Virus record (IMG/VR): IMGVR_UViG_3300042542_002992
Span: 1 to 62,327 of that record
Origin: a virus
Lineage: Duplodnaviria > Caudoviricetes
Strand: one strand, 5' to 3'
Length of the DNA: 62,327 nt
The notes under the pieces are model-generated. The model was given only the letters and a program-made list of their open reading frames with translations. It made no database searches and was not told where the DNA came from. Each line of letters begins with the position of its first letter. The stretch's first letter is position 1. A program made the position numbers and the translations under genes. Positions 14,218 through 61,980 of this stretch are shown here, piece after piece.

Positions 14218-14249
14218 TTTGTATATATCAAATTAATTTTGTATCTTTG
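14218..14249 (+). promoter_or_regulatory. Bacteroidota-type promoter for GT/DNA polymerase operon
   Basis: TTTG(14218)-N20-TATCTTTG(14242). Confidence 0.75.
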
Positions 14250-14255
14250 TAAAAT

Positions 14256-24509: not shown

Positions 24510-24535
24510 TATTTATTAGAAATAGAGTTACGATA
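24510..24535 (+). promoter_or_regulatory. late-type TATTTAT motif plus leader, near-duplicate of 59071-59096
   Basis: TATTTATTAGAAATAGAGTTACGATA vs TATTTATTATAAATGGAGTTACGATA, 24/26 identical. Confidence 0.55.
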
Positions 24536-27675: not shown

Positions 27676-27679
27676 GATT

Positions 27680-28306: not shown

Positions 28307-28358
28307 ACGAACGTTTTGGAGACGAAACGTGTGTCATAAAGAAAATTTTTAATTTCCT

Positions 28359-31434: not shown

Positions 31435-31823
31435 AAATAGAAGACTACAACAATCTACAAGGATTTGAAAATGAGACCCAAATTGCTGTAGACTTCGATG
31501 GTGTTATTCATAGAAATTCCAAAGGATTTCATGATGGCACAATATACGATACTCCAATTGATGGTTCTTTGGATGCTATAAAAGAATTACATGACATGGG
31601 TTATACTATCGTAATATTCACGGCAAAGGCAAAAAAAGACAGACCACTCGTAAATGGTAAGACTGGAGAAGAGTTGATTTGGGAGTGGTTGGTAAAACAT
31701 GGTATTTCACAATACGTTAAAGAAGTAACTTCAGAAAAACCAAGGGCAAAGTATTATATAGATGATAATGGTATCAGATTTACAAGTTGGACTGACACTT
31801 TAAATTTGGTTTTATCAAAATAA
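31431..31823 (+). CDS. HAD-superfamily phosphatase
   Basis: VDFDGVI, IFTA, KP.A..YIDD. Confidence 0.85.
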   Translation: MKIEDYNNLQGFENETQIAVDFDGVIHRNSKGFHDGTIYDTPIDGSLDAIKELHDMGYTIVIFTAKAKKDRPLVNGKTGEELIWEWLVKHGISQYVKEVTSEKPRAKYYIDDNGIRFTSWTDTLNLVLSK

Positions 31824-31836
31824 TTTTGTATATTAG
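31805..31836 (+). promoter_or_regulatory. Bacteroidota-type promoter inside glycan island
   Basis: TTTG(31805)-N20-TATATTAG(31829). Confidence 0.65.
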
Positions 31837-31851
31837 TAAAAATAAATCGTT

Positions 31852-33036
31852 ATGAGAGAACAAATTCCTTTATTTAAAGTGTTTATGAGTCCTACCGCAA
31901 AAGACGAGGTGGGTAAAGTGTTGGATAGTGGTTTCATTGGGCAAGGTGCTGTAGTGGAAAGGTTTGAAAAAGATTTGAGTGAATTTCTTGAAAATGACCG
32001 AGTTTTAACTTTAAACTCCGGAACATCAGGTCTTCATTTGGCGTTACATCTATTAAAAGCTCCAAAGAAATCAACGCAAGTATACCATGGTGTAGCTTCA
32101 GTTGATTCCTATTGGCCTGGATTAGAAGATGGTGATGAGGTATTAGCTACCTCTTTGACCTGTACCGCTTCCAACTTTCCAATTTTGGCTAATAATCTGA
32201 AAATCAAATGGGTTGATATTGACCCAACTACTTTGAATATTGATTTGGATGATTTGGAAAGAAAGTTGAGTCCAAAGACCAAAGTTATTATGTTAGTACA
32301 TTGGGGTGGATATCCAAACGACTTGAATCGTATAAAACAAATTCAAGAAAAATGCCAACGTATGTATGGGTTTAAACCTGCTGTGATTGAGGATGGGGCA
32401 CATTCATTTGGTTCAAAATACATGAATAAACCATTGGGTAATCATGGTAATATCGTAATGCACTCATTACAAGCAATTAAACATATTACTTCAGTCGATG
32501 GTGGTGTTTTGATTTTACCACATCAAGAATTATACAATAGAGGTAAGTTGCTTCGTTGGTATGGTATTGACCGAGATTCGAATAGAAAAGATTTTAGATG
32601 TGAGGCTGATATTACGGAATGGGGTTTCAAGTTTCATATGAATGATGTGAACGCTGCTGTTGGTATTGAAAATTTAAAACACGCAAAAAATATTATTTCG
32701 TCACATAAATCAAACGCAAAGTTTTATGATGACTCTCTGAATGATGTTGCCGGATTGACCACACTAACCCGACACACAGGCCATGATTCAGCATTTTGGA
32801 TTTACTCAATGTTAGTTGATGACCGAGATAGATTTATGAAGTGGATGAAAGAGTGTAATATTATTGTATCACAAGTACACGAACGAAATGACAAACACAC
32901 TTGTGTCCGTGAACATATGTCAGCATTACCACAACTTGATAGAACTATTGGTAAAGTTGTATCCATTCCTGTTGGTTGGTGGGTTAATGACGAACAAAGA
33001 GAATATATTGTTGATTGTATCAAAAAAGGTTGGTAA
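31852..33036 (+). CDS. DegT/DnrJ/EryC1/StrS sugar aminotransferase
   Basis: NSGTSGLHLA, VHWGG, IEDGAH, SLQAIKHITS.DGG (PLP lysine). Confidence 0.92.
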   Translation: MREQIPLFKVFMSPTAKDEVGKVLDSGFIGQGAVVERFEKDLSEFLENDRVLTLNSGTSGLHLALHLLKAPKKSTQVYHGVASVDSYWPGLEDGDEVLATSLTCTASNFPILANNLKIKWVDIDPTTLNIDLDDLERKLSPKTKVIMLVHWGGYPNDLNRIKQIQEKCQRMYGFKPAVIEDGAHSFGSKYMNKPLGNHGNIVMHSLQAIKHITSVDGGVLILPHQELYNRGKLLRWYGIDRDSNRKDFRCEADITEWGFKFHMNDVNAAVGIENLKHAKNIISSHKSNAKFYDDSLNDVAGLTTLTRHTGHDSAFWIYSMLVDDRDRFMKWMKECNIIVSQVHERNDKHTCVREHMSALPQLDRTIGKVVSIPVGWWVNDEQREYIVDCIKKGW

Positions 33037-33626
33037 TGTATATAGAACCAAAAATAGAATCTTCTTACTATTGTAGTAACAAGGGAGCTCATCCAAGTAG
33101 AAACTTATTACCATACTTTTATCCAAAAATTGGTAAAGCTATTTATGATGTGATTATGGATAAAAAACCAAAAATTGTTGTAGAGTTTGGTGTATTGAAC
33201 GGATTCTCAACAGTGTGTATTGCACAAGCTCTTCGTGACCTTGGTGGTGGTAAACTTTATTCATATGACCTTTGGGAGAACTACCCATACAAACGTGGTA
33301 ACAAACAAATCGTTTCTGAAAATTTGGAAAAATATGGATTAACCGAATTTGTAGAATTATGTGATGGTGACTTTAACGATTGGTGTTCCGAAAAACATGA
33401 ATGTGACTTACTTCACCTTGACATCAATAATGATGGTAATATTATATCGATGGTCAGTTCTAATATCGATTGGTGTGATGTTCTATTTGAAGGTGGTACT
33501 TATGAACGTGATACTTGTTGGTGGATGGAAGAGTTTAATCGTAGACCAATTACCGATGTCAAAGAAGCAGTTGGTTATAAAGTATTAGTAGAAGAATTTC
33601 CGGGATTGTCAATTATAGAAAGATAA
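33036..33626 (+). CDS. class I SAM-dependent methyltransferase
   Basis: VEFGVLNGFST, SYDLW, DLLHLD. Confidence 0.8.
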   Translation: MYIEPKIESSYYCSNKGAHPSRNLLPYFYPKIGKAIYDVIMDKKPKIVVEFGVLNGFSTVCIAQALRDLGGGKLYSYDLWENYPYKRGNKQIVSENLEKYGLTEFVELCDGDFNDWCSEKHECDLLHLDINNDGNIISMVSSNIDWCDVLFEGGTYERDTCWWMEEFNRRPITDVKEAVGYKVLVEEFPGLSIIER

Positions 33627-33627
33627 T

Positions 33628-34530
33628 ATGCCACGTTTTTTTAGAATGTATGGTGAGTCAATCTTTGACCTTGGTGATGTAGAAAGACTTGGGTTTCCAA
33701 TAACTGATGGTTATCAAATTCCAGATGAATATATTGAGTCTGGTAATTTTTTGATAATGAGATTATGTAATGGTTTTGGTGATTGGGGTATAATTTCAGC
33801 ATTACCTCGAAAACTAAAAGAAAAATATCCAAATTGTAAGGTATATGTACCCAGCGTCACTTTGATTAAAAAGATATTTGGGGATTCACATCAATGGAAA
33901 CATTGGCCGAATCCGGAGTTGAATTGTGAACGTGTTTTTGTAAATAATCCATACGTTGATGGCTTTGTTGATACTATTGATGAGGTTGATGTTTTTCATG
34001 ACCACTATAGGGTGTATGACCCTAATAATGAAAACGTATCATTGGTAAAACAAATGATGCTATTTTGGGGATTTTCTGATTCGGAGTGTGTTGACTATTT
34101 GCCGGAATTGTATTTTGACAAAGATGAAATTGAACATGGTGATTCTTTGATTAAAGAATACTTTGGTGATTCCGAATTCGGTGGGTTTATAGCTACAAGT
34201 AGTCAGTTATCAAATGGTAAGTTTTTTGACGACTATAGAAATAAATTAATCATTGATGAGCTAAAAAAACATAATTTAAAGTATGTTTACTATGGTGGGG
34301 TTGATATAAAAGATACACCATTTGCAGACTATGTACAAGTTGGTTTAGATTTTGCAAAAGTCACAACACCACTACGAGTTCAACTTTACATACGTTCAAA
34401 GGCTAAAACAAATATTGGATATCAGAGTTCCATACATGAATTAATTTGTAGATATTCACCAATCGTTTGTACTGAAATGGATGGTGGTCCTCGTGAAAAC
34501 TATTTTGATAATATAACTTATTTGAAATGA
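33628..34530 (+). CDS. GT9-like (heptosyltransferase-type) glycosyltransferase
   Basis: R...GFGD...SALPR.LK.KYP, NNPYVD, PELYF. Confidence 0.6.
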   Translation: MPRFFRMYGESIFDLGDVERLGFPITDGYQIPDEYIESGNFLIMRLCNGFGDWGIISALPRKLKEKYPNCKVYVPSVTLIKKIFGDSHQWKHWPNPELNCERVFVNNPYVDGFVDTIDEVDVFHDHYRVYDPNNENVSLVKQMMLFWGFSDSECVDYLPELYFDKDEIEHGDSLIKEYFGDSEFGGFIATSSQLSNGKFFDDYRNKLIIDELKKHNLKYVYYGGVDIKDTPFADYVQVGLDFAKVTTPLRVQLYIRSKAKTNIGYQSSIHELICRYSPIVCTEMDGGPRENYFDNITYLK

Positions 34531-35579
34531 AAATAAATAACAAATATATCATAGGAACACATACGATGTTCTATGAAATTGAGATTTTACCGGAGTTTAT
34601 TGACTCTTTAATACAATGCTCAAATGAAGTTGAGAATCCTGAAAACATAACATATGACTTCATATTCAACATTAGCGAATACCTTGAAGGGGTCGATACT
34701 ACACAAACAACAAAGGATAAATTAGTATCAAGATTTGAGTCGGAAATGGTAAGACTATCCAATACAGGTGTTAATGTTAGATACAATGTGTATTCCGATG
34801 ATTCTAAATTATATAGTATAGCAGATTATCGTAGGGATTTCAACTACCACAATTGTTCAGACCATGATTATTTGATTTGGGGTGAAACTGATTCGTTGTT
34901 TCCAAAACAATTGTTTGACTCATTGGAAAGTATTAAAAACTACGCAAATAGTCAGAACATTCACAGATACACTGTTTGGTTTGCTGAACGTAAAATGTGG
35001 GATGCTTCGTGGGCTCCGTTGGAACACATCGACTTTGAAAAGGAAAAATACATCTCGATTAAAGATTTTGCAAACGAAGATGACTACAAAAAGAAAATTG
35101 CAGAGTCTCCACATAGTATTCGATATGTGATGAATCTTGATGAAATGAACGAAATAAATGACCGATATGATGACCTTAACGTTCAGATTTTACAATACCC
35201 AAAATTCAATGGATGTGGTCTTGTAATGAGTTCTGATTTTGTTAAAGCCGGTGTTAATATCCCTCGTGGTATTTTTGGAGTAGTTGCCGAGGATACTGCT
35301 ATGATGATATCCGCTCAGCAGGTCATGGGTAAGGCGTATATTCAGTTCGTAGTCAAAAACATATTGTTGGTTCATAATAGAGAACACACTCGTAAACGTA
35401 TGTATTGTGTTGACAAAGAAACTCATTCGGAAAGTGGGATGGGTGACTCATACCAACATGGAAAAGGAAAGTGGTTTGATAGAATTCTTGATATGTGTAA
35501 ACAAAACGTAAATTTGTTAGGATATAGACAAGACCGATTCTTTACTATTAAGGATTTTGAAAATGAAAATAGAGCTTGA
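34527..35579 (+). CDS. putative GT-A glycosyltransferase
   Basis: WGETD (DxD-like) and EDT motifs; glycan island context. Confidence 0.5.
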   Translation: MKINNKYIIGTHTMFYEIEILPEFIDSLIQCSNEVENPENITYDFIFNISEYLEGVDTTQTTKDKLVSRFESEMVRLSNTGVNVRYNVYSDDSKLYSIADYRRDFNYHNCSDHDYLIWGETDSLFPKQLFDSLESIKNYANSQNIHRYTVWFAERKMWDASWAPLEHIDFEKEKYISIKDFANEDDYKKKIAESPHSIRYVMNLDEMNEINDRYDDLNVQILQYPKFNGCGLVMSSDFVKAGVNIPRGIFGVVAEDTAMMISAQQVMGKAYIQFVVKNILLVHNREHTRKRMYCVDKETHSESGMGDSYQHGKGKWFDRILDMCKQNVNLLGYRQDRFFTIKDFENENRA

Positions 35580-36333
35580 TTATATAGTTCCCGAACCAAG
35601 TAGAACAGCACCAAACCTAATAGCGGATTTGGATGTATCCGCTAACTATATTGTAGATTTATATAATCAATCAAACATCAATAGACAATACAACGATTTT
35701 CTGAAGGGTAAGTCGGTTGTTATTGTAGGACCTGCTTCTTATTTGGAAGGTAGGGGTTTGGGTGAATTTTTTGATAGCTTTGATGTTGTTGTAAGATTGA
35801 ATCGTTCATTTCCGGTTACCAACACCAATGATTATGGAACAAGATGTGACATCAGATACCATAACATGAGTCAGAATAATGCTCAGGGCGGCCCGTTGGA
35901 TATTGATTTGATGCTCTCATTGGGTGTAAAATATGTTAGTTCACCATTTCCAAAACACATGGATTATTTTCACAATGACATAGTTGAATGTGAACGCCAG
36001 TTAAGTGGTAGTGGTATTGAATTTCACCATTGGTCTGATTTAGAACAATTTTTGACATTTCATATGTTGTTGAATACTCGACCAAACATTGGAACGTGTG
36101 CTATACTTGATTTGTTAAATTATGATATTAAATCATTACACGTTTCTGGAATTACATTTTTTAAAGATGGGTATAATTCACAATATAGTGATAGAGATGA
36201 TGACCTCGTTCCAGCATATCATGCAAATGGAGTTGCTAATCATGCTCAAAAACCACAAAAACAATTAATAAAACTCATTGGAGAATTTGATTCAAGAATC
36301 ACATTTGATGATGAAGTGAAAGATTCTTTATGA
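35563..36333 (+). CDS. GT29 sialyltransferase-like protein
   Basis: Sialylmotif L-like VVIVGPASYL...G..FDSFDVVVRLN...DYGTRCD; motif S-like PNIG..AI; G.TFF; C-terminal H. Confidence 0.78.
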   Translation: MKIELDYIVPEPSRTAPNLIADLDVSANYIVDLYNQSNINRQYNDFLKGKSVVIVGPASYLEGRGLGEFFDSFDVVVRLNRSFPVTNTNDYGTRCDIRYHNMSQNNAQGGPLDIDLMLSLGVKYVSSPFPKHMDYFHNDIVECERQLSGSGIEFHHWSDLEQFLTFHMLLNTRPNIGTCAILDLLNYDIKSLHVSGITFFKDGYNSQYSDRDDDLVPAYHANGVANHAQKPQKQLIKLIGEFDSRITFDDEVKDSL

Positions 36334-37286
36334 AAATAGCATTTTTTAGTGAGATGGGGTTTGATGGTAAGATTCCAAGAACTCATACAAACATGAGAGT
36401 TGAGTTTGCTCAAATGTGTGCACTTGGAGCTGACCACTATCCTATGTTAAAAATCCAACAAGTGCAACAAGAATATGATGTTGCTGTACTTTTAGTTGGT
36501 AAGTCCACGAATTTCAGAAATCAAATAGCAAATATTGATGTTGTAAATGAAGCACGCAGATTTGCTAAGAAAGTCCTTTGGATGCAGGAAGGTCCTCATT
36601 GGGTTTTCCAAGATATGCCATTGGAACACCAGTTCTGGCACTACAATGTTCTTGCATCTGCTGATGGATTATTGACTGAAAATAAAACCGACATACCTTA
36701 CTTTAAAGGAATTATGGGTGATGATAAGTGGGTTGTGGATATTCCAAGTTTGATGATTACCGACCTTGTTAATGATGTAGAGTATGCTAATAAAGAAGAA
36801 AAAATAATTATCGGTGGTAATTTTTGCCGATGGTATGGTGGGTTTGATTCATATATTTGTGCCAGAGATTTGGAGATTCCAATTTGGGCGCCATCTATGG
36901 GTAGAAAGATTGAAAACGAAGACCACATTGAGGATATGAACTACTTTCCTTACATGGAGTGGGTCGATTGGATTAAAACTCTATCGTCTTTTAAATACGC
37001 AATCCATTTAATGCCGACCACAGGCGCTGGAACATTTCCAATGAATTGTGCATACTTGGGAATCCCGTGTGTTGCATACAATGATTTGGATACTCAAATT
37101 AATTTACATCCAGACTTATCAGTAAATCCAGGTGATGTTCAGAGTGCTAGAAAACTTTTGAACAAATTAAAGAATGACCCTATCTTTTATAAAGATATGA
37201 GTGATAAAAGTAGATATTTATATAAACAATACCATTCAGAAGAATCGTTTCTATCTGATATTAAAAAGAAGTTACAAACATTATGA
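36330..37286 (+). CDS. GT-B glycosyltransferase
   Basis: KIAFFSE, WYGG, AGTF..NCAYLG.PC. Confidence 0.65.
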   Translation: MKIAFFSEMGFDGKIPRTHTNMRVEFAQMCALGADHYPMLKIQQVQQEYDVAVLLVGKSTNFRNQIANIDVVNEARRFAKKVLWMQEGPHWVFQDMPLEHQFWHYNVLASADGLLTENKTDIPYFKGIMGDDKWVVDIPSLMITDLVNDVEYANKEEKIIIGGNFCRWYGGFDSYICARDLEIPIWAPSMGRKIENEDHIEDMNYFPYMEWVDWIKTLSSFKYAIHLMPTTGAGTFPMNCAYLGIPCVAYNDLDTQINLHPDLSVNPGDVQSARKLLNKLKNDPIFYKDMSDKSRYLYKQYHSEESFLSDIKKKLQTL

Positions 37287-38470
37287 TTACAAAAAGCGAT
37301 ATTAGTTTTATCCAACCATCAAGAAACAATTTAAAATACTTAAAATGGTCTTACGATGCTATTCGTAAAAATGCCGGAAGTGAACCTCACATTTGTGTAG
37401 CGGATGATTTTAGTAATGATGGTACTTGGGAGTGGTGTCAAGAAATGATGTCAACCGACCCAAACTTTCACGCAATCCGTAACGAAGGACCTACTCGATT
37501 GGGGCATACTATTTTATATGACCGATTAATCAATGAGGTTGCACCTACAAAGATTGTTGGTATTTATCACGCTGATATGTGGTTGTGTCCTGGTGCTCTT
37601 GAGTCGGTGTTAGAACACATCAAACCTATGACTGTGGTATCATTAACTCGTATTGAACCTGACTTACACCCACCGGGACCGGAGAAGGTATTGATTAACA
37701 ATGCCCCAACCGAGCCGGAGAATTTTGATGAAGATTGGTTCATGGAATTCTTTAACAATTACTTACCAACGGTTAAGAACAAAATAACTGATGGTATATT
37801 TGCTCCTTGGTTTTTATTCAAAGAAGATTTTCAATCTATCGGCGGCCATGACCCATTGTATGCTCCGCAATCAAAAGAGGATTCAGATATCTTTAATCGA
37901 TTTTTACTAAATGGATATCAGTTTGTTCAAACTTGGGAAGGGTGTGTGTTTCATTTGACTTGTAGGGGTTCACGATTTAATCCAACATTGACTACTCCAG
38001 GTACCAACTCCAATGAGTGGGAAGCTCAGAATATTCGTTCAAGTCGTAACTTTATTCGTAAGTGGGGGCATTTTGTAAAACACGATGTTCAATTAAAACC
38101 AATCATTCCTCACAAATATGATATCGAATTTGAAGTAGCAAATTGTAATCTCAAGATGATTGAAGCATTAGAACCTTGGTGTGATAGAATGACACTTGAT
38201 TGTTCTCAAGAAGTTATTAATAGTTACATTCAAAGTGAACAACCAAACACTAAATTTGATTTATCAAAGAAGTTCAATACGAATGATAAATCAGACATTA
38301 TAGTACAATTTGACGCACAACGAATGACAAATCAGTCATTTCAGTTTATCCAAAATATGTCAGAAATATTTGATTTCAATCAATTTGAGATTGGTCAGTA
38401 CGAATTCGACATATTTAATATTAAGGTAAATCGTATAAAACACTACGAAGACGCCCTTATAAAATTATGA
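37283..38470 (+). CDS. GT2 glycosyltransferase
   Basis: DDFSNDGT, HADM, GGHD, EDSD..NR, H...R.SR. Confidence 0.88.
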   Translation: MITKSDISFIQPSRNNLKYLKWSYDAIRKNAGSEPHICVADDFSNDGTWEWCQEMMSTDPNFHAIRNEGPTRLGHTILYDRLINEVAPTKIVGIYHADMWLCPGALESVLEHIKPMTVVSLTRIEPDLHPPGPEKVLINNAPTEPENFDEDWFMEFFNNYLPTVKNKITDGIFAPWFLFKEDFQSIGGHDPLYAPQSKEDSDIFNRFLLNGYQFVQTWEGCVFHLTCRGSRFNPTLTTPGTNSNEWEAQNIRSSRNFIRKWGHFVKHDVQLKPIIPHKYDIEFEVANCNLKMIEALEPWCDRMTLDCSQEVINSYIQSEQPNTKFDLSKKFNTNDKSDIIVQFDAQRMTNQSFQFIQNMSEIFDFNQFEIGQYEFDIFNIKVNRIKHYEDALIKL

Positions 38471-39448: not shown

Positions 39449-39822
39449 AAAAAAAGATACTCATAGTAATAATTTCATTTGTAGCATTGGTTTGTTTACA
39501 AATATTTTCAAGTGGGCATGGTCACGTTGTCGTGGTGGAAGAAAATGTACAACTGACAGATGAAAATAAACAATTAACAACTGCCAATAAATCATTGCGT
39601 AGTACTGTTTCTAAATTAGAAACTAAAAACGAAGAACTTGTTGAAGAGAAACAAAATCTCGAAACGATGGTTTCCGAGGTGATTGGTGATTTAGATAGTA
39701 CAAGAGCTGTTGTTAAAAATATCAAGAAAGAGTTGAAAGATGAGAGGACTGTTAATAGCATTAATAATGGTCGGGAATTTGAGTTTCAGCCAATCAAGTT
39801 ACCCGATTCAGAAGGTAATTGA
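39445..39822 (+). CDS. TM + coiled-coil protein, i-spanin-like
   Basis: N-terminal TM, long heptad region, 3' end overlapped by next gene. Confidence 0.5.
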   Translation: MKKKILIVIISFVALVCLQIFSSGHGHVVVVEENVQLTDENKQLTTANKSLRSTVSKLETKNEELVEEKQNLETMVSEVIGDLDSTRAVVKNIKKELKDERTVNSINNGREFEFQPIKLPDSEGN

Positions 39823-40309
39823 TGGCGATACTTTTGTTATTCTGACAAAGGGGCAAGCTGATACAATTAATAGTATTTTTGAAAGTCAGAAAGCCAAAAT
39901 TGCAAAATACAAAGAGGAAACTAAAATCAAAGATTCTATAATCTCAATACGAGATACGTTATTGGTGTATTATACAAATAGAATCATAGAATATCATACA
40001 ATCATAGATAAAGAGATTGAACGTGTTGATAGACTTGATACTTTATCAGATTGGTTATACAAACGTGCGGTAGAAGGCGCTTGGTTATATTATTCGTATA
40101 AGAACCAATCTGTTGTTGCTGTGGATTTATCAAAATATGTAGTTCGTAAAGACGACTATACCGGTGACTTACTGTTTTATAGAATGACCGAGGATTGTAA
40201 TCCAAATGATAAACATGATAAAGAACCACCTTTGTATTGGCAAAATGATATAGCATTACCATCTCGACCTAAATTGAATATATTGAAATTAAAAGAAACC
40301 GAAAGGTAA
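39740..40309 (+). CDS. secreted protein overlapping the spanin-like gene
   Basis: Signal peptide MRGLLIALIMVGNLSFS|Q; 83 nt overlap in the +1 frame. Confidence 0.6.
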   Translation: MRGLLIALIMVGNLSFSQSSYPIQKVIDGDTFVILTKGQADTINSIFESQKAKIAKYKEETKIKDSIISIRDTLLVYYTNRIIEYHTIIDKEIERVDRLDTLSDWLYKRAVEGAWLYYSYKNQSVVAVDLSKYVVRKDDYTGDLLFYRMTEDCNPNDKHDKEPPLYWQNDIALPSRPKLNILKLKETER

Positions 40310-40356
40310 GAATTCAACATATTTATTATAAATTATTTATAAAATGGGAGTTGTCG

Positions 40357-40968
40357 ATGAGTTTAAAATCGTTACAAACTAAAATTGGTGTAGCAGCAGA
40401 TGGTGCTTTTGGACCTGGAACTTTAAAAGCTGCTATGGCTTATTACAAATTTACACCAGAAAGAGCCGCTCACTTCTTTGCTCAAACATCACACGAAACT
40501 GGTGGATTCAAAGCATTTTCTGAAAACCTAAATTATTCAGCACAAGGATTGCAAGGAATCTTTGGAAAGTATTTTCCTGGAAACTTGGAAGAATCTTATG
40601 CTCGTCAACCTGAAAAAATTGCCAATAGAGTTTATGCTGATAGGATGGGTAATGGAAATGAAGCATCTGGTGATGGTTGGAAATATAGAGGTCGGGGTGC
40701 TCTACAATTAACAGGTAAGGCTAACTATGAAGCATTTTCAAAACACTTGGCTAAGCCCGAAATAATTACAAATCCGGATTTAGTAGCAAATGAACTTGCT
40801 TTTGAATCAGCAATGTTTTTCTTTGATAGAAATAAATTGTGGGATATTTGTGATAAAGGTGTCAACAAAGATACCATTCTTGCATTAACAAAAAGAATCA
40901 ATGGTGGAACTCATGGGTTAGCCGACCGTGAGGAAAAAACACTTAAATATTATGGTTGGTTAAAATAA
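40357..40968 (+). CDS. GH19 endolysin with short peptidoglycan-binding N-terminus
   Basis: ADG.FGPGT; FFAQTSHETGGF...ENLNYS; DGWKYRGRGALQLTG; TKRINGG..GL.DR. Confidence 0.92.
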   Translation: MSLKSLQTKIGVAADGAFGPGTLKAAMAYYKFTPERAAHFFAQTSHETGGFKAFSENLNYSAQGLQGIFGKYFPGNLEESYARQPEKIANRVYADRMGNGNEASGDGWKYRGRGALQLTGKANYEAFSKHLAKPEIITNPDLVANELAFESAMFFFDRNKLWDICDKGVNKDTILALTKRINGGTHGLADREEKTLKYYGWLK

Positions 40969-40981
40969 GGAGATTACTAAC

Positions 40982-41581
40982 ATGGCAAAGTACACAAAAG
41001 AACAAGTTGAAAAAGCTGTAAAAGCTAAAGGTTATGTATGGTTTGAAGACGCTGCTAACAAAGGTTTTGATTTAAATATCGTTGGTATCAGAAACTCTGC
41101 TACCGGAACTAAAGTTACCAATGTATTTGATGATGCTATTTCAGTATCATACAAAGAAAATGGTGTTTGGATTTACAAGGAGTGGGTAAACACTACTGAT
41201 CCTGGAACTAAAGGTGTTAAAGAATATCACAACGCTGCAGGAGTTGCTCGTTTGGTTCCCGGTCAATATCGTGGGTCTCATACGTTAGGTCTTCACCAAG
41301 GTAAGTACGAAGCTTTGAAACAACAAAAGCCGGTAAAAGTATATCGTGATGCTAATCGTGATATGAACTATGATGAAACTAAAATCCAAGAAGGTGTATT
41401 TGGTATTAACATTCACAAGGCTGGTGCTGATTCTACTTATGTAGAGAACTGGTCTGAAGGATGTCAAGTATTCAAAAAAGCAGCTGACTTTGAAGAGTTC
41501 ATGGCTATCTGTAGAAAAGCTGGTGCTATTCATGGTAAGTCATTTACTTATACATTGATTGAATCAAAAGATATCGTTTAA
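40982..41581 (+). CDS. L,D-transpeptidase-fold peptidoglycan enzyme
   Basis: GINIH...WSEGCQ (H-x-S-x-G-C catalytic motif of the YkuD-like fold). Confidence 0.7.
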   Translation: MAKYTKEQVEKAVKAKGYVWFEDAANKGFDLNIVGIRNSATGTKVTNVFDDAISVSYKENGVWIYKEWVNTTDPGTKGVKEYHNAAGVARLVPGQYRGSHTLGLHQGKYEALKQQKPVKVYRDANRDMNYDETKIQEGVFGINIHKAGADSTYVENWSEGCQVFKKAADFEEFMAICRKAGAIHGKSFTYTLIESKDIV

Positions 41582-41604
41582 TATTTGATAAGATACCTAT
41601 AAAC

Positions 41605-41638
41605 AAACCCTCCGAAAATCACGGAGGGTTTCTTTTTA
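41605..41638 (+). terminator. rho-independent terminator
   Basis: AAACCCTCCG-7 nt loop-CGGAGGGTTT perfect 10 bp stem followed by CTTTTT. Confidence 0.85.
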
Positions 41639-41646
41639 TATGGGTA

Positions 41647-41653
41647 TATTTAT
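41647..41653 (+). promoter_or_regulatory. late-type TATTTAT motif before envelope operon
   Basis: Immediately after terminator, 52 nt before the AGGAG-led ATG. Confidence 0.5.
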
Positions 41654-41705
41654 ATTGGAATTAGTTTTGAATTTGTTATGAGCCGTTAATAAAGGAGAAA
41701 CAACT

Positions 41706-41954
41706 ATGGCATTTTGGGACATTTTCAAAGACAAAAATGATTTTAACGAGAAAACTATCGTAGGTTTTCTATCATTCACAGTAATGGCTATTTTCGCCGG
41801 AGCTGACATCGTAACTGGTATTATGGGTAATCAACTCATCATTAGCGACACGATTTTTAATTCGTTCGTAATGATTACCTTGGGTGCTTTTGGTATCGCT
41901 GAAGCTGGTAAGATTTTCGGTGGTAAAAAGAACAACGAAGAATCAGAGGGATAA
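41706..41954 (+). CDS. small two-TM membrane protein
   Basis: Two hydrophobic segments; AGGAG upstream. Confidence 0.7.
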   Translation: MAFWDIFKDKNDFNEKTIVGFLSFTVMAIFAGADIVTGIMGNQLIISDTIFNSFVMITLGAFGIAEAGKIFGGKKNNEESEG

Positions 41955-41958
41955 TTTC

Positions 41959-43860
41959 ATGAAAAAATTACTCGTATTGTTAACTACAATATGGGTGAGT
42001 GTGTCAGCGTTTGGGCAGAATGGTAAGAACGAAGTTCTCCCTGCCCCCGCTTCGAGCTCTCCATATTTCTTGATTGATACAACGTTTGTTCAAGGTTCAA
42101 AACTTGAAGATACAACTGTTGTTTATGTTCACTTTAACAATCCAACATCAAATAAAATCACCGGTATTCAGGTTAGATTCTTTTATGATAATGTTAACTT
42201 CAAAACTCCGATTGTAAAGTGGGGTCCGGTTGCTACAGCAGTATCGTCAAAGTATGGTGCTTACTATTCATCTTCAGATTGGGTGAACGTGAACTTAATT
42301 TATACCGGAAACTCATCTACATTCGGATGGTCTAATGGTGCTATATTCATGGTAAAGTTACCACATAAATCAACCTTTGACCCTGCTACTGTAGATTCTT
42401 TGATGGTGACCGGTACTACTACATACAATAACCTTGCTACCACAAGTGCCGGTATTGACGTTAGTTTAGGTATGTTTTCATATGGTGGTGCTTTCTTACA
42501 ACCTACTTTGAAATTCCCATTCATTGTTAAAAACGTTCAGAACGGAGCTACAAAAGGAATTACCGCTAAATACCACTACAAAAAGAAGGCAGCTTCAACT
42601 TGGTCTGCTGGAACTTCATTTAGGACCGATTCTACCGGTAAAGCTATTATTGAAATCCCATACGACACATCATACTACAATGTTAAGTTGACTATTGCTA
42701 CTGATTCATTAAAAGATGGTAGTGCTATTTCTATTGTAGACGCATATAGATTGGCTGATATTGCAGTACAATCCGATACCGCAACTTCATACGAATATCA
42801 AGAAGGTGATATCAACCGCAGTGGTACGTTAACAACATCTGACGCATTCTTGGTATTTAATCGTTTAGCAAAAATGGATACTACTTGGAATGTTCTTGTA
42901 TCGGGTGAACACAACGTTAAATTATTAAGAAAAACTGAATATGATTCTATCGTTGCTACTCCATCTACATTCTTAACATCAAAAGTTGGTGTATACACAA
43001 TCGACAAATCTATCAATGGTTTGGATTCATTAAAATATCATTCTTACGTTTTGGGTGATGTAACTTCTACTGGTTATAATACCACATCATTCTTGGTAGC
43101 TAAAATTGCTCAAGGTGGAAGTGGTACACAATATGTTCTTGACCAACAAAGAATGATTCAACACATCGATGATTCAGTTCAGTTTGTGATTCCTAAACTA
43201 AACGTATCAGGTGATAACACCGCTACCATTCCTGTAACCTTGGTTACTCATGGTAACTCTATTGGTGCTGCACAAATTGGTCTTGAGTTTGATACAAATA
43301 TCTTTGAATTCGAATCATTGGATATGGGTGAGACTATGAGTCGTTGGACATCATTCCTTGCTAATCAAGATGGTAAGATTTTGTGGGGTGGTCATGAATC
43401 TCAAATGGACCCTGCTCTTGTAACTGGCACAACTAACGTATTTACTTTCAAGTTTAGAATCAAATCTACAAACTGGGAAGAAAGTCCTATTAGAGTATTC
43501 TCAAAGGCTGCTGGTGATGAGACTGCAAGTGATTTAAATATTATTAGAACTCCTGTAGATGCTACTGTTGTCTATAGAAGAGGTAAGAGTGAATTGTTGG
43601 ACGAGTTAGTAGATGGATTTAGAACATTCCCTAACCCAGCCACCGATTATATCTTGGTTGATTACTACATGGCTGAACAACACAAATTGTCAAGTGGATT
43701 ATTCACACTTGATGGTCAGTTGTTACAACATAACGAGGTTATCAATCAGGGTGGTGTTACAAGCACCAAATATGATTTGACAAAATTACCTACCGGTGTG
43801 TATGTGTTAATGATGTCAACTGATACAAAAACCAAATTTTACAAAATCGTTAAATATTAA
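41959..43860 (+). CDS. T9SS type A sorting-domain protein with cohesin-like and dockerin-like domains
   Basis: Signal peptide ..SAFG|Q; cohesin-like ITGIQVRFFYD and IGAAQIGLEFD; dockerin-like GDINRSGTLTTSDA; CTD FPNPATD...LPTGVYVL...KFYKIVKY. Confidence 0.85.
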   Translation: MKKLLVLLTTIWVSVSAFGQNGKNEVLPAPASSSPYFLIDTTFVQGSKLEDTTVVYVHFNNPTSNKITGIQVRFFYDNVNFKTPIVKWGPVATAVSSKYGAYYSSSDWVNVNLIYTGNSSTFGWSNGAIFMVKLPHKSTFDPATVDSLMVTGTTTYNNLATTSAGIDVSLGMFSYGGAFLQPTLKFPFIVKNVQNGATKGITAKYHYKKKAASTWSAGTSFRTDSTGKAIIEIPYDTSYYNVKLTIATDSLKDGSAISIVDAYRLADIAVQSDTATSYEYQEGDINRSGTLTTSDAFLVFNRLAKMDTTWNVLVSGEHNVKLLRKTEYDSIVATPSTFLTSKVGVYTIDKSINGLDSLKYHSYVLGDVTSTGYNTTSFLVAKIAQGGSGTQYVLDQQRMIQHIDDSVQFVIPKLNVSGDNTATIPVTLVTHGNSIGAAQIGLEFDTNIFEFESLDMGETMSRWTSFLANQDGKILWGGHESQMDPALVTGTTNVFTFKFRIKSTNWEESPIRVFSKAAGDETASDLNIIRTPVDATVVYRRGKSELLDELVDGFRTFPNPATDYILVDYYMAEQHKLSSGLFTLDGQLLQHNEVINQGGVTSTKYDLTKLPTGVYVLMMSTDTKTKFYKIVKY

Positions 43861-43873
43861 AAAAGGATTCGAA

Positions 43874-44278
43874 ATGAGTGAAGAAGTAAAAGAAGGAATG
43901 TCTAGCATCACCAAAACAGTGATTGGTGCTGTTACTACAATTGTAACTGTAGTTTCCGGTTATGTTGTTACAAATGTTGAGAAAATATTTGGTACTGATG
44001 AAAAAGAAGAGAAAACCGAACAAGTATCACAACAGGGTGGTGCTCAAGGTCAATCTGCTACTCCAGCGCCAGTTGTAATCAACATGACAAACAATAATAC
44101 ACAACAACAAACAAATTCCAATGGTGGTGGTAGAACTATCATTAAGGAAACTGTTCGTGAAGTTCCCGCTAACCAACCTGCAGCTGCTACTCCAGCACCA
44201 GAACCTAAAAAGGAAACTGTTGCTGAAAGAATGGCAAGATTGAAAGCCGAAAAAGCTGCGGCCGGAGAAGGAAAATAA
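43874..44278 (+). CDS. membrane-anchored low-complexity protein
   Basis: N-terminal TM, then Q/N/P/A-rich disordered tail. Confidence 0.7.
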   Translation: MSEEVKEGMSSITKTVIGAVTTIVTVVSGYVVTNVEKIFGTDEKEEKTEQVSQQGGAQGQSATPAPVVINMTNNNTQQQTNSNGGGRTIIKETVREVPANQPAAATPAPEPKKETVAERMARLKAEKAAAGEGK

Positions 44279-44281
44279 CCT

Positions 44282-45022
44282 ATGGAAAATCGTAAAGATA
44301 ATTTCATATCAACATTGTTTAGTGTTGTTGGTATTATAGTAATGATTGTCGGATTCGCTCTAATTTCGTCTGCTATAACTGGATGTAAATCTACAATATC
44401 TACTCAACAATATCAAGCTGAATTTGAAAAGGCTGCTCCTTTGGAAACATTACCACCATACACTGGTGAAAAACAAGTGGTTCAACTTGCTACTTTGAAT
44501 GTAAATAAAGAATTGTGGGAATCTTTTCCTGAACTTCGTGAGAAGAGACTTGGAATGGGTGTTTCGAATAGAATTATTGAAAACTTCGAAACCACAAATA
44601 GATTTATTTACGCTGAAGAAAAAGAAGCTATTGTAAATCAAATGTTGGATGCTTGGGAGAAAGATGCACAAGGTCTTGGTGATGGTAAAACTAAAATCAA
44701 GATGGAAGGTATCGCTCTACCAAAATTCATAGTGTATGCTGAAATATATGACTTTTCAGTTTCTTATGCTGAAAAATATGACAAGGGTAAATTACAAAAG
44801 ACAAACACAACAATTATCGGTATTCAAATCAGAATGGTGAATGTTGACAATTCACAATACATCGTAGCCTCTGGTCAGGGTACATCCACTCAAATTGGTG
44901 AAGGTTACTTCAAAAACCCAAGTATGTCTTTTGACCAATCTACAGTCGGAATTGCTACTCAAAGAGCTTTAGAGGTTGCTACAATGAACCTTATGAAGCG
45001 AATGAGTACAAATGGCTGGTAA
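44282..45022 (+). CDS. CsgG/HfaB-family outer-membrane lipoprotein
   Basis: Lipobox ITG|C; GMGV...E..TNRF...E; AEIYDF; IQIRMVNV.N...SG.G. Confidence 0.75.
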   Translation: MENRKDNFISTLFSVVGIIVMIVGFALISSAITGCKSTISTQQYQAEFEKAAPLETLPPYTGEKQVVQLATLNVNKELWESFPELREKRLGMGVSNRIIENFETTNRFIYAEEKEAIVNQMLDAWEKDAQGLGDGKTKIKMEGIALPKFIVYAEIYDFSVSYAEKYDKGKLQKTNTTIIGIQIRMVNVDNSQYIVASGQGTSTQIGEGYFKNPSMSFDQSTVGIATQRALEVATMNLMKRMSTNGW

Positions 45023-46469
45023 ACAATTCATATTACTAACTTTATTTTTAAGTGGACTGTCCCTATATGGGCAGTCCACTTATCGTTATATAGACCCGTG
45101 TACGGGTCAACAAAAGACGATAAATTTACCACCAAATGGTACTGGCACACTTATGAACTATGCGGGTCAAACTCGTATATTTAGTTGGGCTGAACTACAA
45201 ACCGGTGCTTATGAAGCATGGGTAGCATCTATTAATGCTCAATTCCCACCGGGAGTTGACCCATGTGCCGGTCAAGGTGAAACAGTAACAAATAACTTTA
45301 ATACACAACTTGGTTCACAATCAGCAAACAATGTGGCTTCTATAACCGGCATTGTGAGTATGGCAGCGTCCATGGGTAGTTCAATGTCAGGTGCAGCTTC
45401 TACCGCAGGTGGTGTTGGTAGTTCAATGTCAGGTGGTTCTTCAAGTGGGGGCTCTAACTCCAACGATAATGGTGAGGGTGGTGAATCTGGCGAAGGTGGG
45501 TCTAACAATTCCAATAATAATAGTGGGTCTAAACCACCAAGTGGTGGTAGTAGTGGTAGTGGTGGTAGTGGTGGTTCGGGAGGCTCGGGTGGCAGCGGAG
45601 GCTCCGGTGGTGGTTCTACTGGTGGCTCTGGTGGAAGTGGTGGTGGTTCTACCGGCAGTTCTGAAGGTCAACCACAAGGACAACCTCAAGGTGAAAACAC
45701 ATCGGAGACTACTACAAGTGAGGGTGGTGGCACGAGTCAAACAAATGCGTCTGCTACGGGAGGTGAATCTGAATCCGATAATGGTGGGGGTGGTTCTTCC
45801 GGTGGTAACAAATCTAAATCAAAACAAGAAAAGGTTGGACGTGGTGCATTAATTGGTGCTGGTGATATTGTTATTATTAGAAATTCGGAAGACATAAAAG
45901 AAACCGGTTCTGATAACTTTAAGATAAACGTATCAATGACTCATTTGAATACTAAACAAACTTTTATTAAGGGTATAAACGTAAACTATCAGACTGGTGA
46001 AAATGTTACAAACGTAACACTATATGGTTCTTTAAAAAAGAATGGGTACATGGGTATATTCTCAAACTCATTTATGACAAACTTTAAAACCGATTGGTTC
46101 AATACATCATCACTATTGAATGCTCAAAAGACCGGACCTGTAACTTGGATGTTGGGGGGTAATTTCACCTATGGTTATCTTGGTAAGGGTCAATTTAAAA
46201 ACTTTTCGTTAGTTGGTGGTGGATTTACTAATTTTAAAGGTGGAAAATCTATCGGAGCTAACGTATTATTGTTGTCAGTATATTCCCCATACATATTTTA
46301 TTATGAGGGTCAATGGTATAAGAGTGGGTTCTTGATGGTGCCTATGATTAATACCGACTTTAAAGTTACGGATAAGTTCAAATGGAGCATAAGTTTTGCA
46401 GGAGTGTATCAACTAAATCAGTCAGTTCTAAACTGGCAATTAATGACAGGTACAAAAATATTATTATGA
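45012..46469 (+). CDS. secreted protein with Gly/Ser-rich linker and C-terminal beta-barrel-like domain
   Basis: Signal ..SLYG|Q; two Cys in the N-domain; about 150 aa G/S/N linker; alternating amphipathic strands to the C-terminus. Confidence 0.7.
   Translation: MAGKQFILLTLFLSGLSLYGQSTYRYIDPCTGQQKTINLPPNGTGTLMNYAGQTRIFSWAELQTGAYEAWVASINAQFPPGVDPCAGQGETVTNNFNTQLGSQSANNVASITGIVSMAASMGSSMSGAASTAGGVGSSMSGGSSSGGSNSNDNGEGGESGEGGSNNSNNNSGSKPPSGGSSGSGGSGGSGGSGGSGGSGGGSTGGSGGSGGGSTGSSEGQPQGQPQGENTSETTTSEGGGTSQTNASATGGESESDNGGGGSSGGNKSKSKQEKVGRGALIGAGDIVIIRNSEDIKETGSDNFKINVSMTHLNTKQTFIKGINVNYQTGENVTNVTLYGSLKKNGYMGIFSNSFMTNFKTDWFNTSSLLNAQKTGPVTWMLGGNFTYGYLGKGQFKNFSLVGGGFTNFKGGKSIGANVLLLSVYSPYIFYYEGQWYKSGFLMVPMINTDFKVTDKFKWSISFAGVYQLNQSVLNWQLMTGTKILL
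45375..45812 (+). repeat. low-complexity Gly/Ser coding repeat
   Basis: GGS/GGT-rich runs; 19 bp direct repeat GGTAGTTCAATGTCAGGTG at 45375 and 45417. Confidence 0.8.
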
Positions 46470-48151
46470 AACAGTTTATTTTAACTCCAATTTTTGTACT
46501 ATTAGTACAAGTTTACGGATATTCTCAAACCTTTACTCATTCTGGCAAAGTGATGACGGATTCAAGTATTGGTATTTCAGGAGTAACTGTTAAGTTATAT
46601 GAGAGAACAACACCAACCTTAACCGGATTCACATCACAAACAAATTATAATGGTCACTCATATTATCGTTCCACATCCAGCGCAACTTGGACTGATGCAA
46701 AAGCTGCTTGTGAAAATATGGGTGGACACTTGGTAACAATCTCCAACTCGTCCGAAAACTCATTTGTATACAATACATGGCCCAGTGGTTGGATTGGGTA
46801 TTATCAAGATAAGAATGGGGCATTTTATTCAGAACCAAACGCGGGGTGGAGATGGACACAACCATACACCACATCTGGTCAAATTGCAGATTATGAAGTT
46901 CAAAATTATACAACCGGAAGTACACTTACTGATATCAAATCGAGTATAAATGCTACATTATTTAATACGCCTACGTTAACGAGTACAGGTGGAAAATACT
47001 TGACTTTTAATGGGTCAACTCAATACGCAATGACCGGTGATTTATCGGGCAAGTTTTCGGGTGGGTCTGAAGTTACAACTTTAATACTTTGGGTATATCC
47101 AACAGATGCTGGTGTGTTGGTATCTGAAAAGGGAAGTGCTTCGTTATCATCAACATGGCACGAATCAAACATAGAGATAACAAATGTTTCGGGAAGTAGT
47201 GGTACATTGAGATTGGGGTTGTGGAATACGAGTAGTGCTATATCACAAATTAGTACAACTATTGCAATCAATAGGTGGAATATGATTGCTCTCACTTACG
47301 ATGGTAGTACCATGAAAGGATATCTGAATGGGGTGTACTTTAATTCGATTACGTTCAATCGTGATGCTCCATATAATAATAGTAATGGATTGTATTATGC
47401 TTTATTCTCATCAGAGAGTACAAACATGGGTGATGGTACATATGCTGCTGGTAGGTTGGGTGATTTCCAAGTATACAACACAGCACTAACCGCTGATGAG
47501 ATTGATAGAAATTATATGTCAACCGCTTGGAGATTTGGCGTCTATCCATATTCAAACTGGAATGGGGGAGAGCCCAACAATGCAGGTAGTGAGGATTACA
47601 TACAATTTGTGTCCGGTGGTAGGTGGAACGATTTACCAAATAATTCCTTACCTTACGTTTTAGAATTTGATTATATTGTTACTACAAGTTCGTGGTCATT
47701 ACTGACATCCACAACCACAAATTCAAGTGGTGCTTATTCGTTTAGTGTGTCTACGAATCCATCCAAAGAATATTATATAGAAGTAGTAACCCCAACGGTT
47801 TCAACAAACATATCAACAACCGACTTGATTGGTATTGGCGATGTTTCTCTTCAAAAACTACCTACGAAATCATACCACTATCATAAGTTTGACATAAATC
47901 TTGATTCTAAAATAACAATATCAGATATGCAGTATATAATGGATATTATAAATGGTACTCGGTCATTTACCAAAACCACACTATTGTTTACCTCAAGTCA
48001 ATGGTCAAGTTTATCAAGTGGTACTTCTAATTTAAAATCTACGATTCCAGGAATCACTACAAATTATACATTTACACCTACATCGGGTGGAACTACAAAC
48101 TTCTATTTATTATCACCCGGTTACACAAACCAATCCAAACTAACATATTAA
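46466..48151 (+). CDS. secreted C-type lectin / LamG / dockerin-like protein
   Basis: Signal ..YGYS|Q; CTL halves YNGHSYY..TW.DAK.AC..MGGHLVTI..WIG and NW..GEPNN..ED..WND; LamG WNMIALTYDG..YLNG..YN.AL; dockerin-like DINLDSKITISD. Confidence 0.85.
   Translation: MKQFILTPIFVLLVQVYGYSQTFTHSGKVMTDSSIGISGVTVKLYERTTPTLTGFTSQTNYNGHSYYRSTSSATWTDAKAACENMGGHLVTISNSSENSFVYNTWPSGWIGYYQDKNGAFYSEPNAGWRWTQPYTTSGQIADYEVQNYTTGSTLTDIKSSINATLFNTPTLTSTGGKYLTFNGSTQYAMTGDLSGKFSGGSEVTTLILWVYPTDAGVLVSEKGSASLSSTWHESNIEITNVSGSSGTLRLGLWNTSSAISQISTTIAINRWNMIALTYDGSTMKGYLNGVYFNSITFNRDAPYNNSNGLYYALFSSESTNMGDGTYAAGRLGDFQVYNTALTADEIDRNYMSTAWRFGVYPYSNWNGGEPNNAGSEDYIQFVSGGRWNDLPNNSLPYVLEFDYIVTTSSWSLLTSTTTNSSGAYSFSVSTNPSKEYYIEVVTPTVSTNISTTDLIGIGDVSLQKLPTKSYHYHKFDINLDSKITISDMQYIMDIINGTRSFTKTTLLFTSSQWSSLSSGTSNLKSTIPGITTNYTFTPTSGGTTNFYLLSPGYTNQSKLTY

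Positions 48152-59709: not shown

Positions 59710-61980
<2,271 letters not shown>

Follow-up and report, generated by a model that had tools for sequence, protein, structure and literature searches.

Cargo of a type IX secretion system (T9SS), which is present in Flavobacterium, bears a Sec signal and a type A C-terminal domain (CTD); it crosses the inner membrane, folds in the periplasm and passes through the T9SS, after which the CTD is taken off and the cargo is either set free or attached at the cell surface. Cohesin modules and dockerin-like modules are known outside cellulosomes as well as within them. Among phages, Bellas et al. 2020 (PMC7468147) described three variable 'Cryophage' genes that encode type A sorting domains together with an endoglucanase, a GH39 or a PA14 cargo; the authors regard the occurrence as unique and propose a hijacked host system, with an altered cell surface or superinfection. 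Proteins that obey the Q-rule of Bacteroidota signal peptides (PMC5837995) have been noted in Porphyromonas gingivalis phages (PMC10367356). Here we describe a gene that unites these elements in 62,327 nucleotides of viral DNA (Duplodnaviria, Caudoviricetes; IMG/VR record IMGVR_UViG_3300042542_002992, positions 1–62,327; hereafter the window). The open reading frame (ORF) at 41959–43860 on the + strand encodes a 633-residue protein with a predicted T9SS tail, two cohesin folds and a dockerin-like module. We give a probability of roughly one half to the reading that this protein is a T9SS-exported, non-enzymatic scaffold that recruits the lectins of an adjoining gene cassette to the envelope of the infected cell.

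Both ends of the protein carry putative export signals. We took the ATG as the start because homologues align from it and because an extension to the alternative GTG codon at 41884 would overlap the upstream gene. Read by eye, the N terminus runs from MKK through a hydrophobic stretch to AFG and then Q20, and none of the 25 aligned homologues departs from Q20, N21 or G22; the signal peptide named in a preliminary description of this DNA is upheld by this reading and this conservation, and as predicted it fits the Bacteroidota Q-rule. At the opposite end, the profile hidden Markov model of the Por secretion tail (PF18962) matches residues 557–631 at 33.5 bits (cut-off 27) and all 25 homologues scanned, and TIGR04183 matches residues 557–632 of 633 at 29 bits (cut-off 23). 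The AlphaFold2 model (predicted local distance difference test (pLDDT) of 73–87 in this region) gives an Ig-like beta-sandwich for residues 558–633, which VIA-align superposes on the CTD of mirolase (8qb1_A; Z 9.6, root-mean-square deviation (r.m.s.d.) 2.1, 71 aligned residues) and on that of PorU (6za2_A; Z 9.4). The type A CTD proposed beforehand is thereby confirmed by two families above their curated cut-offs and by fold. Although the CTD is the least conserved domain, with a mean identity of 29% between homologues and the window protein, F554, P558, P560, G586, G613 and Y615 are invariant in the alignment, a pattern that would be expected from selection on a sorting signal. In four related virus records and in Flavobacterium phage vB_FspM_immuto (hereafter immuto), the best CTD match is the orthologue of this gene, and only one further match above the cut-off was found in those records, in a single one of them. 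With the CTD and a cohesin kept in 25 of 25 homologues, the motif residues of the CTD invariant and a Q-rule signal peptide in place, conservation lends good support to the predicted use of the secretion system of the host. Two other exported proteins of the window also have a Gln right after a signal-peptide-like segment (SFS then Q in 39740–40309, LYG then Q in 45012–46469), which suggests a general adaptation of the secreted proteins of this phage to the Q-rule.

Between the export signals, searches of Pfam, NCBIfam and PHROGs detected no catalytic domain, in agreement with the preliminary description, and no PHROGs family was assigned. The AlphaFold2 model of the whole protein has a mean pLDDT of 63.9 and a predicted template modelling score (pTM) of 0.35. 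Of the two regions that had been called cohesin-like, the more C-terminal (D4) is recognised by sequence and by fold: residues 407–535 match PF00963 at 34.9 bits (cut-off 24.1), and the model superposes on 6kgd_A (VIA-align Z 14.1, r.m.s.d. 2.6, 135 aligned residues). The N-terminal one (D1; pLDDT 70–85 in the whole-protein model) is recovered through structure only, with superpositions on 5nrk_A (Z 13.0, r.m.s.d. 2.8, 136 aligned residues) and 1aoh_B (Z 12.8). No Pfam match at E ≤ 1 lies before residue 257, and hhalign in global mode detected no profile similarity of D1 to D4 (probability 0.04), D2 or D5. On its model, D1 is a cohesin fold that has no detectable sequence kinship to cohesins.

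The two cohesin folds are separated by a small beta-sandwich (D2), a dockerin-like module (D3) and a region with no family assignment (D3b). D2 was modelled at a pLDDT of 59–78 (whole-protein and domain-only models); in an all-against-representatives structure search its best match had Z 6.1, transthyretin and transthyretin-like proteins followed at Z 5.8–5.4, and pilin, macroglobulin and phage neck domains were also among the matches. The earlier Ig/prealbumin-like label holds in so far as transthyretins are among these matches, which are otherwise generic and unspecific. A search of PDB sequences with a profile of residues 181–404 returned only transthyretin-like proteins, at a non-significant E of 0.8. 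We call D3 dockerin-related by sequence because Dockerin_1 is matched in homologues and because the family profile finds true dockerins. Nine of the 25 family members scanned match Dockerin_1 at E ≤ 1 (best, 4.2e-4), and the profile of residues 21–404, run against 1.84 billion proteins, matches, through its positions 230–279, the dockerin proteins P0113 (E 2.4e-6) and P0124 (E 6.2e-5), which themselves score 83.5 and 180 bits with Dockerin_1. The second calcium-loop-like motif of D3, D284-I-N286-R-S-G-T-L-T-T-S-D295, is followed by a helix; D261, D284, N286 and D295 are invariant among aligned homologues, and more distant family members have a canonical D-V-N-G-D loop. The fold of D3 is not confidently modelled, and in the domain-only model of residues 181–404 (mean pLDDT 45.6) only the first 67 residues are usable. 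Fold prediction, which had been suggested as a check on the modular layout, thus returned cohesin folds for residues 30–180 and 402–539 and left the dockerin fold without a confident model.

A feature that ties these modules to other proteins is found a few genes downstream. In 44 of 49 loci the gene of the 633-residue protein is followed in the same order by genes for a 134-residue protein, a lipoprotein-like protein and a Gly/Ser-rich protein; in the remaining five the contig stops at the first gene or shortly beyond it. A 132-residue protein closes the set in 42 loci, and in 41 of these it is preceded by a variable slot of 1–3 ORFs; nearly all of the slot proteins begin with a stretch that resembles a signal peptide and ends in Gln. 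In the window the slot has one occupant, whose last 165 residues form a module that is conserved among its counterparts and is homologous to residues ~211–345 of the 633-residue protein, that is, to the end of the beta-sandwich, the dockerin-like part and a short stretch after it (hhalign probability 95.2%, E 2.9e-8, 124 columns); the first part of D3b, up to about residue 345 of that alignment, therefore belongs to the module common to the neighbouring lectin-type proteins. In a small local database, a profile of residues 181–404 matched 17 slot, lectin or gp013 proteins at E < 1e-3; the slot protein of the window (46460–48151) was found at E 1.2e-6 by this profile (A2) and at E 2.8e-5 by the D3 profile. 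Elsewhere the same module ends proteins with legume-lectin plus LamG, GEVED, Big_1 or Mtd_N domains. A hidden T9SS signal in this conserved C-terminal tail was considered and dropped because the module and the CTD show no similarity: no slot protein matched the CTD profile, and hhalign aligned the slot module with neither D5, D4 nor D1. The cassette sits among replication, nucleotide and lysis genes rather than structural genes, both here and in immuto.

Slot occupants of other kinds also occur. A type of ~270 residues is the first slot ORF in six loci (L030, L031, L034, L036, L046 and L048; for example, L031 12595–13413); it has a signal peptide and a C terminus ending in ...N-Y-D-F, contains no dockerin-like module, has no Pfam match and looks like a small outer-membrane barrel. 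In locus L007 the slot is interrupted by an ORF at 14234–15163 that has no signal peptide and a Cys-rich C-terminal part, and which may resemble a fragment of an IS200/IS605-type TnpB.

A natural division of the protein in a cultured phage bears on how the modules might work together. The only named relatives of the window are three 160-kb isolates of immuto, whose host is Flavobacterium sp. LMO8, and their counterpart of the 633-residue protein (28% identity over 96% of its length) is encoded by two genes, gp014 and gp015 (L001 8001–9825), at the same coordinates in all three. The 363-residue gp014 comprises a signal peptide and the counterparts of D1, D2, D3 and D3b, and ends just after a conserved L-G-D-x-x-G-T-G motif. 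The gene gp015 starts one base later and encodes 243 residues, annotated as a 'cohesin domain-containing protein', which have their own signal peptide ending in Gln followed by nothing but a cohesin and the CTD. Since gp015 has a signal peptide of its own, this is a true split into two exported proteins and not a frameshift error. The motif of gp014 is also where two other clusters stop, with lengths of 363 and 368 residues; one of them may be immuto's own. A protein composed of a signal peptide, a cohesin and a CTD would make sense as an anchor for something that docks, and the dockerin-like module of the other half is the evident candidate.

Relatives of the protein were found only on viral contigs. 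A word-indexed protein search returned 60 homologues of 32–99% identity, nearly all of 623–648 residues; precomputed matches to Cohesin and Por_Secre_tail are recorded for 60 of 60 and 54 of 60, respectively, and direct scanning of 25 homologues detected both in every one. A viral collection contains 48 loci with a relative, on contigs of up to 227 kb. When the N-terminal 384-residue profile was run against 1.84 billion proteins, only 75 matched at E ≤ 1e-3. A pattern scan of one genome per prokaryote species matched 40 stretches, none of which encodes a relative, the patterns being drawn from the dockerin-like region, such that distant cellular relatives could be missed. This distribution points to phages. 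The top match in BFVD, UniProt A0A6J5M064 (E 8.2e-47, 636 residues, 25% identity), bears the automatic name 'Secretion system C-terminal sorting domain [uncultured Caudovirales phage]', so the sorting signal had already been seen by pipelines; other BFVD matches, of 363 and 243 residues, have the lengths of the two immuto halves.

All sizeable ORFs of the window lie on the + strand, its G+C content is 31–41%, and CheckV puts the completeness of the 62,327-base record at 34%. PHROGs matches include a T4-like replication set (single-stranded DNA-binding protein, UvsX-like recombinase, DnaB-like helicase, family B polymerase, clamp and clamp loader), nucleotide genes (ribonucleotide reductase, thymidylate synthase and MazG), several glycosyltransferases, several endolysins, GroES and GroEL. 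Near-identical DNA of the gene is present in 14 DNA runs from lake water metagenomes, each with at least 0.86 of the sampled words, two of which are possible sources of the window itself; a megablast search with 41000–45000 against phage records gave no match. The window is a fragment of a large T4-like freshwater phage with a probable Bacteroidota-type host, and given the gene content, the immuto relatives and the lake water matches, the protein had rightly been labelled a phage protein.

We also modelled the predicted docking directly, with D1 (residues 21–182), D4 (residues 400–541) and two calcium ions as inputs and the module of the lectin protein as the partner. The complex scored 0.56 (runs of 0.51, 0.56 and 0.61), the best control scored 0.14, and replacement of D1 lowered the score to 0.01; the partner had a pLDDT of at least 68, and runs agreed in at least 93% of contacts. 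These values are a hint that the lectin module may favour the N-terminal cohesin fold. In calibration, 58 of 80 solved complexes passed, against 2 of 110 mismatched pairs; the passes at a score of 0.60 or less comprised 7 of those 80 and both mismatches. The calibration set contained no riding ligand and did not use custom alignments; a score of 0.56 is rated as weak support on this scale. The pass may reflect likeness to solved cohesin–dockerin complexes, of which there are many, and not binding.

In the reading to which we assign even odds, the Sec machinery would export the protein and the signal peptide would be cut before Gln20, after which the type A CTD would take the folded protein through the host T9SS, to be released or fixed to the outer surface. 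The two cohesin folds would hold the dockerin-like modules of lectin-type proteins from the cassette, and possibly the protein's own, so that the envelope of the infected cell, or the debris left after lysis, would gain a phage-specified lectin layer. Speculatively, such a layer might alter what the infected cell or its debris adheres to or presents, for instance by hiding receptors, which would guard against superinfection or progeny loss, or by glycan binding. Partners without a CTD could ride on the scaffold, use the lipoprotein and the barrel-like protein of the cassette, or meet the scaffold only after lysis. A fully specified version, in which the lectin proteins dock on the scaffold cohesins in the periplasm and leave as a folded complex on a single CTD or through CsgG-like or barrel proteins, and in which an exchangeable lectin coat changes adhesion, superinfection or the fate of progeny, strikes us as improbable in all its particulars.

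Several observations weigh against a lectin-recruiting scaffold. D1 lacks sequence similarity to known cohesins, whether judged by Pfam or by hhalign against D4. Dockerin_1 (PF00404) matches residues 257–303 of D3 at 14.2 bits (E 0.051), under its 22.9 cut-off; the first calcium loop is degenerate, with D261 kept and most loop positions lost; and the pLDDT of D3 is ~30 in both the whole-protein and the domain-only AlphaFold2 models. Of the dockerin-like module in the preliminary description, it is thus the relationship to true dockerins, found by the profile, that stands; the Pfam score lies below its cut-off and the fold is not confidently modelled. The calibration describes a complex score such as ours as 'more often wrong than right unless the guess was likely beforehand'. 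A signal peptide without a T9SS tail is what the lectin-type partners bear, which offers them no evident route to the surface, and surface display of the 633-residue protein itself is not assured because type A cargo can be released instead of anchored. The Flavobacterium host is named only through immuto, a distant isolate at 28% identity. The scaffold role first suggested from the sequence has indirect support from the shared module (95.2%) and the immuto split, and weak support from the complex prediction (0.56).

The weak dockerin and complex evidence would fit a stand-alone T9SS-secreted adhesin or spacer, whose modules bind no cassette partner and act as a stalk or in glycan binding, beside neighbours that are independent of it. 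D1 is cohesin-like in fold only, D3 scores under its Pfam cut-off and was modelled at low confidence, the complex prediction gives weak support and, to our knowledge, non-cellulosomal cohesin-like modules are widespread and their partners mostly unknown. Such independence sits poorly with the recurrence of the beta-sandwich and dockerin-like module on the cassette lectin proteins and with the strictly conserved gene order, and a split-off protein of signal peptide, cohesin and CTD is hard to explain without a cohesin binding role; we consider a stand-alone adhesin unlikely. The immuto split, which suggests that the N-terminal half docks on the half with cohesin and CTD, and the presence of both module types on one chain would also suit the self-polymerisation raised in the preliminary description, in which the dockerin-like module of one copy binds a cohesin of a second and chains or a lattice form on or around the cell. 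The lack of confident domain packing (pTM 0.35) speaks against it, if weakly, since the module itself is poorly modelled; self-polymerisation appears to us less probable than a stand-alone protein.

Position in the genome and the likely envelope location of the cassette could instead indicate an accessory to lysis or egress that breaches or reorganises the outer membrane late in infection, in a spanin-like or disrupting manner. In the window the gene comes just after a GH19 endolysin gene, an endolysin-like gene and a gene for a small membrane protein, and the cassette includes a lipoprotein and a membrane-anchored protein. Elsewhere, however, the cassette has the lysis genes at its other end or on the opposite strand, known outer-membrane spanins are far smaller than the 246-residue lipoprotein, and we know of no part played in lysis by lectin, cohesin or T9SS domains, all of which makes this role quite improbable. 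Least credible of all is a decoration or fibre of the virion, with the beta-sandwich modules on the capsid or tail and the export signals vestigial. Virions often bear Ig-like and lectin-like domains, phrog_8510, a 'virion structural protein', is matched by the neighbouring lectin protein at E 4.8e-10, and many BFVD matches are tail or capsid proteins with Big domains. Yet virion assembly takes place in the cytoplasm, neither the Q-rule Gln nor the CTD motif residues vary over a range of 32–99% identity, the 633-residue protein has no PHROG match and the cassette lies outside any recognised structural module. A T9SS-exported scaffold for the cassette lectins remains the reading that we prefer, and the features on which it draws are listed in Table 1.

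Table 1. Positions in the window of the modules of the 633-residue protein and of the features around its gene
Feature	Position	Strand	Basis or remark
Terminator-like hairpin after the preceding gene	41605..41631	+	10-pair stem then T run; consensus match only
Small membrane protein, 82 residues, directly upstream of the gene of the 633-residue protein	41706..41954	+	ORF; no family match
Putative Sec signal peptide, residues 1–19	41959..42015	+	Cleavage predicted before Gln20; read from sequence
D1, cohesin-fold beta-sandwich, residues 30–180	42046..42498	+	Structure comparison only
D2, small Ig/prealbumin-like beta-sandwich, residues 183–247	42505..42699	+	Structure search
D3, dockerin-like module, residues 250–310	42706..42888	+	Family profile and sub-threshold Pfam match
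D3b, no family assignment, residues 311–401	42889..43161	+	Low pLDDT in both models
D4, cohesin domain, residues 402–539	43162..43575	+	Pfam and VIA-align
D5, T9SS type A C-terminal sorting domain, residues 557–633	43627..43857	+	PF18962, TIGR04183, VIA-align
Cassette gene 2, 134 residues, N-terminal hydrophobic segment	43874..44278	+	Directly downstream of the 633-residue protein in related loci
Cassette gene 3, 246-residue lipoprotein-like protein	44282..45022	+	Synteny; Cys35 nearly invariant
Cassette gene 4, 485 residues, signal peptide, Gly/Ser-rich stretch	45012..46469	+	Synteny
Variable-slot protein, 563 residues, exported, C-type lectin and LamG, no T9SS tail	46460..48151	+	Lectin_C, Laminin_G_3
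Last cassette gene, 132 residues	48161..48559	+	Beyond the variable slot in 42 of 49 loci

The remaining cassette members yielded leads. The lipoprotein is the best-conserved of them, at 68–78% identity where the 633-residue protein has 38–50%. It has no Pfam match and no PDB sequence match, either as a single sequence or as a profile; a language-model (Atlas) comparison gave a feature score of 0.94 to CsgG/HfaB clusters, with 179–181 shared features, and we treat a CsgG/HfaB-like relationship as a lead only. An outer-membrane barrel in the C-terminal part of the Gly/Ser-rich protein is likewise just a lead, from Atlas feature scores of 0.92–0.93 to a Bacteroidota 'transporter' cluster and OmpK/Tsx. 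The low-complexity stretch of this 485-residue protein is long (45390–45760), has GGS-type repeats and gives rise to spurious ORFs, both in alternative frames and on the complementary strand; 45533–45580 was skipped as a repeat when sequencing reads were placed on the window. The 132-, 134-, 82- and 485-residue proteins have no family match, and a Pfam search at E ≤ 10 with the cassette proteins of unknown function and two slot proteins from other loci gave nothing meaningful. In immuto (L001) an ORF occupies the position of the 134-residue gene and has no BLAST match to it. The 82-residue membrane protein, which may be holin-like, varies in position among loci and in other phages travels with the lysis genes.

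The hairpin upstream of this membrane protein probably signals that a new transcription unit, to which the gene of the 633-residue protein belongs, begins just upstream of that gene. A sigma-70 promoter scan found 50 sites where 40.6 were expected, with a model that is not suited to Bacteroidota promoters. Two freshwater RNA libraries contain contigs that overlap parts of the gene and its neighbours with few differences (for example, 42161–42660, 41682–42203, 43270–43550 and 43668–43904). They show neither strand nor level, stretches with no cover, such as 46406–47339, are uninformative, and the contigs are no proof of transcription because such libraries can hold DNA.

Other parts of the window deserve a brief account. 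About 14 kb of sugar-modifying genes (24535–38470) lie directly upstream of the region with the lysis genes and the cassette, and encode GT1, GT2 and GT4 glycosyltransferases, an MptE-like protein, a DegT-type aminotransferase, FkbM-type and other methyltransferases, a fused HMGL-like/cytidylyltransferase (28359–30050) and a weak match to a GT29 sialyltransferase; a sulfotransferase-like gene lies at 55586–56239. These genes look like a set for the synthesis and transfer of a nonulosonic-acid-type sugar, and they may be related to the lectin cassette. Three separate genes resemble cell-wall hydrolases (23477–24043, 40351–40968 and 40982–41581), and the types represented are glucosaminidase, GH19 endolysin and PHROG 3000/endolysin-like protein. 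On either side of the DNA polymerase gene lie paralogues of PHROG 1384, 'Mom-like DNA modification protein', three in all (12673–13434, 13418–14212 and 17905–18516); the immuto phages appear in a paper on 7-deazaguanine DNA modifications (PMC10516641). The GroES and GroEL genes lie towards the end of the window (in the region of 58048–58332, 59098–59709 and 59713–61320), with an HNH endonuclease gene just before groEL.

How the locus relates to described systems can be stated for each of its parts. Searches of full-text literature, covering few subscription journals, gave no description of a phage cohesin–dockerin system, of this protein family, of the cassette or of the split, and the papers that mention immuto are on other topics; A0A6J5M064 and gp014/gp015 belong to the same family and carry automatic names only. 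The route, T9SS export of phage cargo, is known, as are the modules; their combination and its conserved context are new. Where phages are known to alter the host surface, the means are mostly enzymes or blocking proteins that act singly. The present locus suggests something modular and exchangeable: a conserved scaffold directed to the T9SS, which is specific to Bacteroidota, with variable lectin modules that seem to fit onto the scaffold. Should the binding prove real, this would be the first natural cohesin–dockerin system described in a virus, within the literature searched, and it would offer a tractable model of how phages of the abundant freshwater Flavobacteria reshape adhesion, aggregation or superinfection, as well as a ready-made, T9SS-compatible scaffold for surface display. 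Because immuto, which has the split form, is in culture with its host Flavobacterium sp. LMO8, the scaffold idea can be tested directly.

In its layout the protein resembles the scaffoldins of Clostridia (CipA and ScaB; cohesins 1aoh, 5nrk and 6kgd), which also have more than one cohesin fold on a non-catalytic chain, and adaptor scaffoldins in particular, in which one chain also carries a dockerin-like module; a C-terminal module that would attach the chain to the surface is a further likeness. It differs from them in that it has no carbohydrate-binding module and that no dockerin-bearing glycoside hydrolases were found beside it, the candidate partners being of lectin, LamG, GEVED or Big types; its anchoring would go through a T9SS CTD in a Gram-negative host and not through an S-layer homology module or sortase; and its first cohesin shows no sequence similarity to Pfam Cohesin, and its binding is putative. 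The scaffoldin-like layout of the preliminary description is accordingly retained for the arrangement of cohesins and dockerin-like module on a chain without catalytic domains, and not for the enzymes and carbohydrate-binding module of a cellulosome; the protein works like a scaffoldin at most, the likeness is one of layout only, and we do not file it as one. Non-cellulosomal cohesins are a further parallel, with VIA-align Z scores of 12.5 for 2xdh of Archaeoglobus fulgidus, 12.3 for 2jh2 and 2vo8 and 12.0 for 2w1n. The last three are from the toxin complexes of Clostridium perfringens. All four, as here, place a cohesin fold outside cellulose breakdown; those are cellular proteins, whereas the present family was found only on viral contigs. 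With cellular type A cargo of the T9SS (RgpB of P. gingivalis, mirolase of T. forsythia and PorU), the protein shares the order of signal peptide, passenger and an Ig-like CTD of ~75 residues, and it departs from that cargo in having a non-enzymatic passenger and a viral gene. The Cryophage genes likewise join type A T9SS sorting domains to phage genes for Bacteroidota-type hosts. There, however, the cargo varies between phage variants and consists of an endoglucanase, GH39 and PA14, whereas here the cargo is conserved and the neighbours vary, and non-enzymatic cohesin and dockerin-like modules head a fixed cassette of envelope proteins.

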